From Escherichia phage BAU.Micro_ELP-22, in the sequence record OR699282.2: a DNA stretch of 64,000 nt; one strand, given 5' to 3'. Shown here piece by piece: positions 11,479 through 20,373 of this stretch; position 1 is the stretch's first letter; each line of letters opens with the position of its first letter. The notes beneath the pieces were generated by a model. That model did not search any database and had not been told where the DNA came from. It was given only the letters and a program-made list of their open reading frames with translations. The translations under genes and the position numbers were made by a program.

Positions 11479-11880
11479 ATGACTACAGTTGATGATATCT
11501 ACAGCACTATACGCAATATGAGTACAGATAGAAAAGTATTTGGTGATAAAGAAAAATCTAAGTGTTATGGTATTGATTCTTTTGATATAATTTCTTATGA
11601 GTACAACACGAGTGGAAATAGTTCACTGAATATCGTCTGCCCTCGTGACCCAGAAAATAATTTTATGTATGTTGAAATTAATAATGATGGAATATTTTTT
11701 ACAAAAGTTTTTAAAGGTGGAATTAATTACGAACCAATTGAATGTATGAATGAAGAAACTTTCTTTCAAGAAGATACAATTATCAATTTAGGTTTTAGTT
11801 TTGATGATTATAAAACATTAGAACATGACTTTAATCGTTATTATAACGGTTTCTTAAAGGAGTTAACAATTTATCTATGA
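11479..11880 (+). CDS. hypothetical protein (133 aa)
   Basis: ORF in the same array; no clear motif. Confidence 0.4.
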   Translation: MTTVDDIYSTIRNMSTDRKVFGDKEKSKCYGIDSFDIISYEYNTSGNSSLNIVCPRDPENNFMYVEINNDGIFFTKVFKGGINYEPIECMNEETFFQEDTIINLGFSFDDYKTLEHDFNRYYNGFLKELTIYL

Positions 11881-18497: not shown

Positions 18498-18854
18498 ATG
18501 AAATCTAAAATCTTTTTACCACAATTAATGTGGCATCTAGCAGAGTTAGATGAAAATGATGAATATACGGACTATGGTGCATGGGATGACAGTACTGAAA
18601 CTTTTAAACCAGATGTAAAATATAAAATCATCTGCAATGAAAGCAAAGGACACAAAAGGTGGACTGAAGAATTTGATCTCGTATTTCTTGACATGAGCAC
18701 AAATAAGTTTTATCATTGTAATTATGAACGAGGTTTAACAGAAGATAGACCAGTACAACCATTCAGTACTGAAACTGATGGTATTAAGTGCAATGAAGTT
18801 TCTGTTACCAGAGAAGAAATTATCACTTATCGAACTTTGTGGAAATATTTGTAA
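18498..18854 (+). CDS. hypothetical protein (118 aa)
   Basis: ORF with GGAG RBS-like sequence; no motif. Confidence 0.45.
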   Translation: MKSKIFLPQLMWHLAELDENDEYTDYGAWDDSTETFKPDVKYKIICNESKGHKRWTEEFDLVFLDMSTNKFYHCNYERGLTEDRPVQPFSTETDGIKCNEVSVTREEIITYRTLWKYL

Positions 18855-18855
18855 A

Positions 18856-19254
18856 ATGCTTAAAGAATTAGATTTTTCAAACTTAGAAATTATCAGTGCT
18901 GTAAAAAACATTTCCGATATGGGAGATGAGAAAGCAGTTCTTGTTACTATTACTTTTGTAAAAGAAAAAGATAGCTATAGCCATTTAACTGGTATTGAAG
19001 AACTAATTCATAAAACCAATCTTGAGAATGATGGTAAACTCATCAAGCTTCAGGCTTCCTACACGCAAAAAACGTCAAATTTTATAGACCTAAATAATGT
19101 AGTCAAGGTGGTATACAATCATCCTGAACACACATATAGGAACACGACAAGAAATGAAAATGTTGCTAACGATTCGAATATTATCGAAGATGTTGAATTC
19201 ATAAACACAATTTTTGATCGTTGTTCTAAGGATTTAAAAAAAGTATACATGTAA
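18856..19254 (+). CDS. hypothetical protein (about 132 aa)
   Basis: Start moved to the Met just after the upstream stop (ORF track 18778). Confidence 0.4.
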   Translation: MLKELDFSNLEIISAVKNISDMGDEKAVLVTITFVKEKDSYSHLTGIEELIHKTNLENDGKLIKLQASYTQKTSNFIDLNNVVKVVYNHPEHTYRNTTRNENVANDSNIIEDVEFINTIFDRCSKDLKKVYM

Positions 19255-19255
19255 T

Positions 19256-19283
19256 GGGACATTATATGTTCCAATGATATAAT
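19256..19283 (+). promoter_or_regulatory. promoter, GGGACA -35-like box, 16-nt spacer, TGATATAAT extended -10
   Basis: atGGGACA-n16-TATAAT; same architecture recurs at 30352 and 49365. Confidence 0.4.
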
Positions 19284-19289
19284 GTATAT

Positions 19290-19806
19290 AGAAAATGACA
19301 ACGGACATTGAAAAATGGACACTGAGAACCTACTTCTCTTGAAAATGTAAAGGATAGATGAGCTTTACCGTTGTAGCGAACAGCAGAAGAAACCTGTTAG
19401 AGTACTGGCATTCAAACAAACACGATGTAAGACCACGAATCACGGCGACACGGCTGTATAAAGAACTCCGATAAGCATACAGAGAGTTCCTAGATAGATG
19501 TATAAGGTTCGCACCTTACCAGATTTGCTAAGGGAGTTCAAGAATAGCGGACGCAATTTTTACAAGAAAGTTGCGTCCAAAATTTGAGAACAAGTACTAC
19601 TTTGATCGAATAGAGTTAGTACTGAGTGCTGTTGATGAAAAGACCAGCGACCGTTGCATATGACTGCGATAGAGAGAAACCGAGCAACCCGCTTTCGCTC
19701 TCTAAATTTTGGTACAAGAAAGATCCGTCCAAAATTTGAGAAATTCGCAATTCGATAATATCCGATGCCATCATCGTCAAGAGAGACTTAATTGTCTCTT
19801 TTTTAT
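19290..19806 (+). ncRNA. putative structured non-coding RNA locus (about 520 nt), no ORF over 15 codons
   Basis: Bounded by the promoter above and the terminator at 19781; visibly GC-richer than flanks; 30-nt direct repeat at 19561-19590 and 19723-19752; hairpins ggacgcaa/ttgcgtcc, aaggt-tcgc-acctt, cccc-tgc-gggg. Confidence 0.35.
19781..19806 (+). terminator. intrinsic terminator (agagac-ttaatt-gtctct + TTTTTTATT)
   Basis: Perfect 6-7 bp stem followed by a T-run at the 3' end of the non-coding locus. Confidence 0.5.
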
Positions 19807-19944
19807 TACCTTCATTCCCCTGCGGGGGGATGTAATAGTCCTCAACAAATCCCGTCAAGTTTTTAAAGTACATTATCATTTTCAGAAGGAACTAGTTTAC
19901 GAAGTAAACGCAGTGACTTCTTGAGTTACGAGAGAACGAAGTGA

Positions 19945-20373
19945 ATGAGTAACACAACGAAAATATCCGATAAATCCGAATTAACACAAATGTTATTCAA
20001 AGAATATTTTGAGTTTCAGATAAAAGACGAACAACAATTACCACAGCAATATTTGAAAAGAATTAAAGATCCGTCAGTAATTACTAAAGAAACTAATTTT
20101 TATAATAGTATTTTGGATTTCGTTAAATCAGTTCATACAACAAGACCTATTGTAGTTTTGTTTTTTGATAAATCTATTCCTTTAGTAGTTCCTGAAAATG
20201 TATTTTTTATTTCAGAAACTGATTTAAATAATCAAAGTACTGTAAGTAGATTAAGAAATTGCTTACTTGTAGTATGTGATTCTTCTTTGTATAATAACAG
20301 AATACTATGGGATAGAAGTAAACGCAATGCAGTTTCTGAAATGAATCCTGAAATTACCTTTATTATTAACTAA
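19945..20373 (+). CDS. hypothetical protein (142 aa)
   Basis: ORF downstream of the non-coding locus; no motif. Confidence 0.45.
   Translation: MSNTTKISDKSELTQMLFKEYFEFQIKDEQQLPQQYLKRIKDPSVITKETNFYNSILDFVKSVHTTRPIVVLFFDKSIPLVVPENVFFISETDLNNQSTVSRLRNCLLVVCDSSLYNNRILWDRSKRNAVSEMNPEITFIIN

Follow-up and report, generated by a model that had tools for sequence, protein, structure and literature searches.

A predicted large structured RNA encoded in several copies by enterobacterial jumbo phages and also present in bacterial chromosomes

RESULTS

A conserved intergenic locus in jumbo coliphages

We analyzed a stretch of 64,000 nucleotides (nt) from Escherichia phage BAU.Micro_ELP-22 (record OR699282.2), referred to here as the window, and concentrated on a gap between two of its genes that probably encodes a single large noncoding RNA (ncRNA). 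Positions refer to the window unless another sequence is named. The source is an Asteriusvirus jumbo coliphage: across 19200-19960, PBECO4 and several other records are 100% identical to the window and 121Q is 97% identical. Genes on the + strand stop at 19254 and resume at 19945, leaving the gap of 690 base pairs (bp) that the original prediction had described from the letters of the window; as it also said, the gap is richer in G+C (0.415-0.43) than its flanks (about 0.29-0.34). Its statement that no open reading frame (ORF) exceeds 15 codons is mechanically false, as + strand ORFs of 29-71 amino acids (aa) can be read there (e.g., 19358-19474, 38 aa, starting with ATG), and none of these ORFs is conserved in orthologues, even at 80-97% identity. 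The minimum free energy (MFE) of the whole region lies below that of shuffled sequences on both strands (z = -3.99 on + and -3.46 on -); thus, folding energy alone cannot choose the strand.

The conserved element, 19297-19858, belongs to a family. In a sensitive BLASTN search of 50,697 phage records, 60-71 records matched at 67-100% identity, at several places per genome and with differing gene contexts and ORFs. All are jumbo phages of about 350 kilobases (kb), from Escherichia, Klebsiella, Salmonella, Erwinia, Yersinia, Cronobacter, Pectobacterium, Serratia, and “Xanthomonas.” The complete genome of 121Q holds exactly four copies, at about 90.3, 192.8, 247.5 (the copy in the window), and 326.6 kb, every one on the + strand and within its own ORF-free gap (600-840 bp); GAP32, CBB, BF, Yen9-04, and three uncultured genomes hold five each. 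Apart from an internal repeat described below, no further paralogue was found within the window. Two pattern scans of viral contigs followed by nhmmer yielded a set of 56 non-redundant (<97% identical) full-length copies, the diverged ones added last being retrieved by a pattern from the conserved 3′ block. Two viral pattern matches in a giant-virus gene were set aside as chance, lying within coding sequence. BLASTP clustering of flanking proteins defined five syntenic loci, which are kept across genera:

Class A: endonuclease VII, RNA, baseplate hub; here the two neighboring genes run opposite to the RNA
Class B: gp415-like protein, RNA, gp416-like protein plus DNA methyltransferase
Class C, the locus of the window: DUF7325 protein, RNA, small ORF plus Dps-like protein
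Class D: GAP32_343-like protein, RNA, ADP-ribosylglycohydrolase
Class E: RNA, two proteins of about 300 aa

The same clustering found no flanking protein family common to all five loci. With synteny kept across genera and no shared neighbor, the paralogues are old and independently maintained; jumbo phages of the Asteriusvirus, Mimasvirus, Eneladusvirus, and 7t3-like groups carry four to five of these ancient copies per genome. Among the paralogues we found no paralogue-specific guide-like segment. Since no segment distinguishes them, the multiple copies most likely serve dosage.

The gap opens with a putative promoter:

19256-19283, + strand: promoter found by consensus scan, with -35-like GGGACA at 19256-19261, a 16-nt spacer, and the extended -10 element TGATATAAT at 19275-19283

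This is the site named in the original prediction, with TATAAT at 19278-19283 and a TG upstream; there it was written as GGGACA, 16 nt, and then TGATATAAT, which counts TGA twice, since the spacer already includes the TGA of the extended -10 element. TATAAT is perfect in all 56 copies and TGnTATAAT is present in 55, lying 45-90 nt upstream of the core on the RNA strand, and we infer a transcription start near 19290.

The same element is common elsewhere in these genomes. TGnTATAAT occurs 85 times on the + strand and 16 times on the - strand of 121Q (25.5 expected per strand), and 14 and 3 times, respectively, in the window, where the + strand sites start at 11583, 19275, 25059, 27952, 30371, 30435, 33972, 34844, 40572, 42674, 46315, 49384, 52760, and 55111. 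Often preceded by a -35-like GGGACA, TGGAAC, or TGAAAC, it looks like a general promoter class of these phages, of the type read by host sigma-70. In class B (121Q copy c2, L017:42762-42810; also L026 and L009), the promoter is followed after a few nt by a strong hairpin with a U-run and then by the RNA. A class B transcript would begin with a terminator-like 5′ hairpin, possibly a stabilizer of the 5′ end or else the terminator of the preceding gene, in overlap with the promoter.

Covariation supports a two-domain fold

We predicted a consensus structure with RNAalifold from 35 non-redundant copies, with pairwise identity down to about 45%, and counted pairs on MAFFT alignments of the 5′ domain (A3) and the 3′ domain (A4). 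About 20 helices were predicted, many of which are canonical in 35/35 copies with three or four pair types, and some of which span about 150 nt. In the 5′ domain, paired cells made up 96.7%, versus 79.7% after shuffling and 27-42% when partners were slid by 1-3 columns; in the 3′ domain, the corresponding values were 92.5%, 81.8%, and 41-51%. Both sides had changed in 23 pairs of the 5′ domain (covariation of 0.443 versus 0.129 shuffled) and in 31 pairs of the 3′ domain (0.342 versus 0.155), and in either domain 0 of 500 shuffles, which leave shared ancestry partly in, reached the observed value. The comparison with related phages proposed in the original prediction thereby yielded compensatory changes in 54 pairs across the two domains. 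In the 3′ domain, G-U cells outnumber A-C cells 230 to 34; together with the TATAAT kept upstream on the same strand, this asymmetry places the RNA on the + strand. The predicted elements, all on the + strand, are as follows:

19297-19536, + strand: 5′ domain (RNAalifold, pair counts, covariation scan)
19297-19304 with 19367-19374, + strand: P1, or pseudoknot 1, in which the second strand is the loop of the local hairpin P3
19330-19340/19350-19357, + strand: P2, with the conserved 9-nt loop GAAAAUGUA
19357-19362, + strand: invariant GAUGAG
19362-19364/19375-19377, + strand: P3
19380-19384/19453-19457, + strand: P4
19394-19397/19442-19445, + strand: P5, with a variable extension at 19402-19439
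19448-19450 with 19499-19501, + strand: pseudoknot 3
19463-19468/19484-19489, + strand: P6
19503-19506/19515-19518, + strand: P8
19529-19536, + strand: invariant UAAGGGAG
19593-19778, + strand: 3′ domain core (pair counts on A4), with the near-invariant strings CGACCGUUGC, GAGAGAAAC, AACCCGCUUUCG, GAGAAAUUC, and CAUCGUCA
19593-19599/19617-19623 plus 19601-19603/19612-19614, + strand: hairpin S1
19605-19611 (S1 loop) with 19750-19756, + strand: pseudoknot 2
19626-19629/19647-19651, + strand: P10
19653-19655/19662-19664, + strand: P11
19665-19669/19745-19749, + strand: P12
19672-19676/19692-19696, + strand: P13
19698-19702/19738-19742, + strand: P14
19764-19767/19775-19778, + strand: P15

The central pair of pseudoknot 3 is A-U in 11 copies, G-C in 24, and unpaired in none. 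Hairpin S1 (10-14 bp with an 8-nt loop) is found in 48 of the 56 copies, and in 46 of those 48 the seven loop nt of pseudoknot 2 are fully complementary to the distal strand, using 10 different loop sequences. Between the helices, the strings AUGAG, GCA.A..A.ACC.G, ACGGC.A...GGC, GAUAGA, UAAGGGA, and GACCGU are invariant or nearly so in the 56 copies, as are GAGAAAC, ACCCGC, CGUCA, GGGGGGA.G, and CAAA.C.CGUCA. These observations support a predicted two-domain RNA with three pseudoknots arranged around invariant unpaired strings. Conservation, covariation, and a promoter kept across 56 copies bear out the central claim of the original prediction, a structured-RNA locus with its own promoter and no ORF.

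Three other pairings or motifs were considered and rejected. RNAalifold paired the 3′ tail CAAAU with 19600-19604, which we discarded because the nt of 19600-19604 covary with 19612-19614 in S1 (UA/GC/AU/CG, none unpaired). By eye, pairing of CGUCA with UGAC (19659-19662) fails in that CGUCA is unchanged where the UGAC side varies, and an Hfq-type (ARN)n reading of GCAGAAGAAACC fails in that the invariant positions are out of the A-R-N register.

It is scarcely credible that the locus is no RNA gene at all and instead holds a decayed gene for a protein, a DNA element that binds protein, or a pair of small RNAs (sRNAs) arising from a direct repeat. Mechanical ORFs do exist, several database records annotate hypothetical proteins there, and the 3′ hairpin is also a near-palindrome in DNA. 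Set against this, the lack of ORF conservation extends to close orthologues, the 54 compensatory pairs include helices across about 150 nt, the G-U asymmetry favors one strand, and the repeat module is optional and peripheral. A decayed gene would have been indicated by an intact frame in relatives; the homologues carry no conserved ORF, and the RNA reading is not refuted. Among the annotations over the RNA are gp516 of 121Q (- strand; window 19616-19879), g347/g348 in fHe-Yen9-04, and six small coding sequences in SHEFM2K and Salmonella SD phages, all of which are probably misannotations.

Peripheral arms and the 3′ end

In addition, we distinguish two variable arms and two 3′ elements:

19536-19591, + strand: variable region 1 (VR1), a hairpin closed by GUUC 19536-19539/GAAC 19588-19591 and carrying repeat copy 1 (19561-19590)
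19549-19556/19571-19578, + strand: VR1 inner stem, GGACGCAA/UUGCGUCC
19698-19742, + strand: variable region 2 (VR2), a peripheral hairpin on P14 carrying repeat copy 2 (19713-19742)
19780-19806, + strand: terminator-like hairpin plus U-run (U6), with the stem AGAGAGAC/GUCUCUUU, part of the single-sequence MFE structure
19811-19858, + strand: conserved 3′ block, formed by the hairpin UUCAUUCCCC-UGC-GGGGGGAUGAA (19811-19820/19825-19834) and then the tail CCUCAACAAAUCCCGUCAA to 19858

The 30-nt direct repeat reported in the original prediction is real (0 matches in 100 shuffles), with its second copy starting at 19713 rather than 19723 and a spacing of 152 rather than 162 nt. The inverted repeat ggacgcaa (19549-19556)/ttgcgtcc (19571-19578) and the tight hairpins aaggt-tcgc-acctt (19504-19517) and cccc-tgc-gggg (19817-19827) stand as described. 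The repeat module has the consensus UACAAKAWAG.U.CGUCYAAAAUUYGAG. Depending on the paralogue class, it occupies VR1 only, VR2 only, both (window, Turkey5, A4, and the E. coli island described below), or neither; VR1 in other copies either bears the module or is a mere tetraloop hairpin, such as GCCA-GAAA-UGGC in GAP32. Judged from these positions, the direct repeat is a predicted peripheral hairpin module grafted onto two different helix tips, not two genes. In place of the one or two paralogous small RNAs once suggested, we find one large two-domain RNA in which the repeat is an internal peripheral module.

The hairpin and U-run (19780-19804, reading AGAGAGAC-UUAAUU-GUCUCUUUUUU), which had been taken as the intrinsic terminator bounding the locus, are present; the locus does not end there, as homology and a nearly unchanged sequence continue for about 50 nt more, to 19858. 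Covarying stems are found in 28/35 copies, and the hairpin is absent in 7/35, including 121Q copies c1 and c2. The + strand hairpin at 19780-19806 was not among the calls of a simple consensus terminator scan, which takes the longest stem that can form, and we think the stem may extend by A-U pairs into the U-run. The hairpin could serve as a leaky terminator or pause site, or it could be a peripheral helix. The columns of the 3′ block are among the most invariant in the 56 copies, with its C4/G6 hairpin staying paired through G-U/G-C changes. Because the block directly follows CGUCAA in the seven copies without the terminator-like hairpin and its own hairpin keeps pairing, we read it as part of the RNA, reached by read-through or in a longer isoform. 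From the start proposed above, the RNA would be about 517 nt long if ended at the U-run and about 569 nt if read on to 19858.

The terminator-like hairpin inside the element and the co-directional gene that begins 20-120 nt downstream in four of the five syntenic classes would also suit a giant cis-regulatory leader or attenuator controlling read-through into the downstream gene. We consider this highly improbable. The downstream genes are of unrelated families, both flanking genes in class A lie on the opposite strand, promoter-like sites stand between the RNA and the next gene (e.g., TTGACA-17-TAGAAT after 121Q copy c1), and the hairpin is missing in 7/35 copies.

We also observed that CGUC(C/A)A occurs four times in the RNA of the window (19574-19579, 19726-19731, 19774-19779, and 19852-19857): once per repeat module, once ahead of the terminator-like hairpin, and once at the extreme 3′ end. 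The last two are invariant in the 56 copies. The motif may serve in recognition or processing. Another proposal is a self-processing or mobile ribozyme, a selfish RNA gene that would pass from one mobile element to another, with its cleavage or ligation sites at the duplicated YCGUCAR strings (19774-19780 and 19852-19859). The size, pseudoknots, and invariant junction nt do resemble those of large ribozymes, CGUCA is invariant at both positions in all 56 copies, and the RNA alone has moved between unrelated elements. We nevertheless regard this proposal as distinctly unlikely: no known-ribozyme model matches, no interrupted gene or target-site duplication was seen, and positions that are syntenic over genera argue against recent mobility within phages.

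Among the neighbors of the RNA in the window, Pfam identifies an upstream stand-alone HNH protein (218 aa, a separate gene), a DUF7325 protein, and a DUF5856/ferritin-like protein, and the flanking genes are complete. As listed, the upstream ORFs 18498-18854 and 18778-19254 share 77 nt; in the 121Q annotation the two genes abut. As the DUF7325 match spans only residues 27-158 of ORF 18778-19254 and the 121Q genes abut, the DUF7325 gene probably starts near 18856. Elsewhere in 121Q, 135195-137160 (L016:35195-37160) is a further stretch of 2 kb without an annotated gene, between arrays of very small early-type ORFs.

Intact copies in bacterial chromosomes and temperate elements

Among 5,426 complete E. 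coli genomes, BLASTN detected the RNA in two chromosomes, at 76% identity. The island copy is full length by nhmmer (E = 1e-130), is preceded by a TGTGATATAAT promoter of its own, and retains the two modules, the terminator-like hairpin with its U-run, and the 3′ block. The island, of about 10.7 kb and 39% GC, is inserted beside ffs and holds the RNA in a 1.4-kb ORF-free gap. It encodes a tyrosine integrase split by IS3, several proteins of no assigned function, and a serine recombinase, along with mSLOG-DUF4326, DUF488, and DuOB proteins, of which DuOB and DUF488 match the PADLOC candidate system PDC-M45A/C; a DUF2188 protein matches the candidate defense system PDC-S16. When the island is compared with the phages, the RNA segment is the only matching part, and no homologue of the island proteins was found in 121Q. 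In the E. coli LR-29-1 island, where the RNA copy is at L227:14860-15545, the sequence directly downstream (L227:15535-16209) comprises about 670 nt without an annotated gene, with G+C-rich segments and several inverted repeats.

Wider scans added other contexts. In species-representative genomes, 119 of the 120 loci among the matches listed were chance and at least one was true, so that bacterial prevalence is a lower bound. The true match lies in an Enterobacteriaceae chromosome of 50.6% GC, within an AT-rich insert and converging on a CI-like repressor gene. The chromosomal genes before the insert encode a nucleoside symporter, an ADP-ribosylglycohydrolase, a PfkB kinase, a GntR regulator, a phosphomethylpyrimidine kinase, and a hydroxyethylthiazole kinase, a set that we take to resemble the yegT-thiM region of E. 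coli. A scan of metagenomes yielded 48 loci with 47 true copies, mostly jumbo-phage-like; two contigs have the order large serine recombinase, RNA, orf165, CI-like repressor, and one T4-like phage of 44% GC has the RNA beside a baseplate gene. No match to the RNA was found in plasmids. One temperate-type contig with the RNA next to a serine recombinase also encodes an RVT_1 reverse transcriptase (L267:1343-2272), about 3 kb from the RNA, past the CI-like repressor and with other genes in between; most likely this is an unrelated defense gene, of the retron or Abi type, within one accessory region.

In the four bacterial and temperate copies, P2-P5, pseudoknot 3, P12, P13, and the 3′ hairpin are fully paired with different sequences, some of P6, P8, pseudoknot 2, and P14 have one or two unpaired positions, and most or all invariant strings are kept. 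By this pattern of predicted pairing, the four copies are intact genes, not debris. A divergent subfamily from the metagenome scan also keeps pseudoknot 2, P12, and P13 with new sequences.

These copies bear on two further explanations. One is that the RNA is a subunit of a ribonucleoprotein (RNP) with a phage-encoded protein, such as a factor for assembly, packaging, or RNA processing. Proteins could bind at the invariant unpaired strings and at the fourfold CGUCMA motif of the window copy, multi-copy genes would fit a stoichiometric component, and jumbo phages encode hundreds of uncharacterized proteins. Yet no protein family travels with the RNA at the five syntenic loci, and the E. coli island and the temperate elements hold intact RNA while sharing no protein with 121Q, leaving a phage RNP unlikely.

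The other is a cis-acting replication-origin primer that forms an R-loop at its 3′ end, in the manner of ColE1 RNA II or T4 oriF/oriG, with one element per origin. Several features would suit such a role. The transcript would be about 550 nt long, with a strong promoter of the sigma-70 type; the 3′ block has an invariant G6 run ahead of AT-rich DNA; and the copies, four or five per genome, are dispersed and all in one orientation. The phages also have T4-type replication genes (including UvsW and RNase H), and a baseplate-hub gene adjoins one syntenic locus. The cumulative GC skew of 121Q tracks gene orientation only and gives no origin signal at any copy, a result that is uninformative. We consider an origin primer very unlikely, given that intact copies occur in a small chromosomal island and in integrated elements without a T4-type replisome, that the conserved tertiary structure far exceeds the need of known primer RNAs, and that no antisense regulator was evident, albeit without a dedicated search.

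DISCUSSION

We favor the reading that 19256-19858 is a free-standing gene for one large ncRNA acting in trans, alone or with host factors, and we put its probability at roughly 60%. Conservation and distribution demonstrate that the predicted RNA is under strong purifying selection, exists in several apparently equivalent copies, and is able to move alone between unrelated mobile elements. Its conservation in predicted junctions and pseudoknots is the signature of a catalytic core or of one that binds a ligand or partner. As the elements share only the RNA and an enterobacterial host, the RNA should act in trans and without a phage-specific protein. The location of the bacterial copies among integrase, immunity, or candidate defense genes suggests a possible role in phage-host or phage-phage conflict.

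Several observations weigh against a free-standing, trans-acting RNA gene. The promoter, transcription start, and 3′ end are all inferred from sequence. The covariation statistics must be read in light of the shared ancestry that their shuffle controls partly retain, and the 5′ leader and outer S1 stem are poorly aligned by MAFFT. Nor is the fold uniform, since eight class C copies in Mimasvirus and Eneladusvirus do not have the S1/pseudoknot 2 hairpin, and the divergent subfamily aligns in the 3′ domain only. In 28/35 copies the terminator-like hairpin plus U-run precedes the most conserved block, which makes the mature 3′ end uncertain and means that read-through or processing is assumed. 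Bacterial copies are few (the two among 5,426 E. coli genomes), and the association with defense islands rests on three or four contexts. Finally, a cis-acting role would likewise fit elements that are multi-copy, dispersed, and all in one orientation.

Under the trans-acting reading, host sigma-70 RNA polymerase would transcribe the RNA shortly after infection begins, or constitutively where an island or prophage carries it, and the RNA would then work as a folded molecule: as a ribozyme, as an RNA-only assembly like ROOL or GOLLD, or as a binder of a host component. It would not be a cis element, a leader, or the partner of a phage-specific protein. A narrower version, which we offer tentatively as doubtful in its particulars, is that of an autonomous RNA machine (a ribozyme or RNA-only assembly) that jumbo phages aim, at high dosage, at a host process and that some bacteria and temperate elements have taken up within defense or immunity regions, as a decoy or competitor directed at such phages or for counter-defense of their own. 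If true, an arms race would be waged with a large structured RNA instead of with proteins.

Large, intricately folded ncRNAs without an assigned function are rare; OLE, GOLLD, and ROOL are examples, and all three have led to new RNA biology. The present RNA is carried by culturable coliphages (PBECO4, 121Q, phAPEC6, and relatives) and by sequenced E. coli isolates, which makes genetics, RNA sequencing, probing, and cryo-electron microscopy feasible. That each genome keeps four or five copies implies strong selection and probably an abundant RNA, and island copies beside candidate defense genes provide a testable link to phage-host conflict. The analysis also corrects annotation, as many database records place hypothetical proteins over these loci.

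We rate the RNA as a putative new class, a member of no Rfam family. The 4227 models of Rfam 15 gave 0 matches on the whole window at gathering thresholds, and at E values up to 10 only scattered snoRNA and miRNA noise appeared, with no intron match. In a permissive scan of 11 further loci with diverse copies, nine sub-threshold matches from nine families were obtained, none inside the RNA element. ARAGORN found no tRNA or tmRNA in the window; together with the Rfam result, this agrees with the original view that the locus is neither a tRNA cluster nor an intron. A full-text search of the published literature found no description of the RNA, and the CBB genome paper is silent on it.

Established kinds of RNA element were rejected on specific grounds. 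A group I or II intron has no model match at E up to 10, and there is no interrupted gene and no reverse transcriptase among the window neighbors. For a retron or DRT ncRNA, Pfam finds no reverse transcriptase among the neighbors in the window, and only L267 has RVT_1, 3 kb away. An IscB/TnpB omega-RNA (HEARO) has no Rfam match, and the upstream HNH protein stands alone at 218 aa. Repeat-array RNAs (CRISPR, type III antitoxin) are not suggested by only two 30-nt units, 152 nt apart and in different hairpin arms. A riboswitch or leader does not fit downstream genes that differ between classes and lie on the opposite strand in class A.

The RNA nevertheless shares features with several known systems. 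Like RNase P RNA and the group I and II introns, it is of large size class, with a multi-domain fold closed by long-range helices and pseudoknots and with conservation in its junctions; unlike them, it has no model match, is not inserted in a gene, and has neither exon context nor a reverse transcriptase or maturase. ColE1 RNA II is a structured sigma-70 transcript of about 550 nt with a G-run near its 3′ end. Our RNA is similar in its predicted size and promoter, and its own 3′ G-run could anchor an RNA-DNA hybrid, whereas its copies also reside in non-replicating chromosomal islands and its covarying tertiary structure is far more elaborate. An antisense regulator of the RNA I type was not evident, without a dedicated search, and - strand promoter-like sites overlap only the + strand promoter region.

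Among jumbo phages, the distantly related PA5oct has four ORF-free transcribed loci, ncRNA001-004, of 236-619 nt, two of which show high expression during the whole infection (PMC7318152). At its 3′ end, ncRNA004 (L065:1173-1218) has a pyrimidine/purine hairpin, UUUCCUUCCC-AAAC-GGGGAGGAAA followed by UCUUCUC, that resembles the 3′ hairpin and tail of our RNA. As nhmmer gave no significant match (best E = 0.08) and the invariant strings are all missing, the PA5oct RNAs are not demonstrably homologous to it, and the resemblance could reflect convergence or a very remote relationship.

The closest parallels, in function and in architecture, are with ROOL, GOLLD, and OLE. ROOL and GOLLD often lie near tRNA genes. 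Our RNA differs in that it is not near tRNAs (the 121Q tRNA cluster is at 72-78 kb and the copies are at 90, 193, 247, and 327 kb), matches no Rfam model of the three, and occurs in four to five copies per genome in jumbo phages of Enterobacterales. GOLLD, ROOL, and OLE are reported to form RNA-only homo-oligomers (PMC12286853). Like these three, our RNA exceeds 500 nt, has many conserved helices, pseudoknots, and invariant unpaired nt, and is carried by phages and integrated elements without a fixed protein partner; like ROOL and GOLLD, it has no assigned function.

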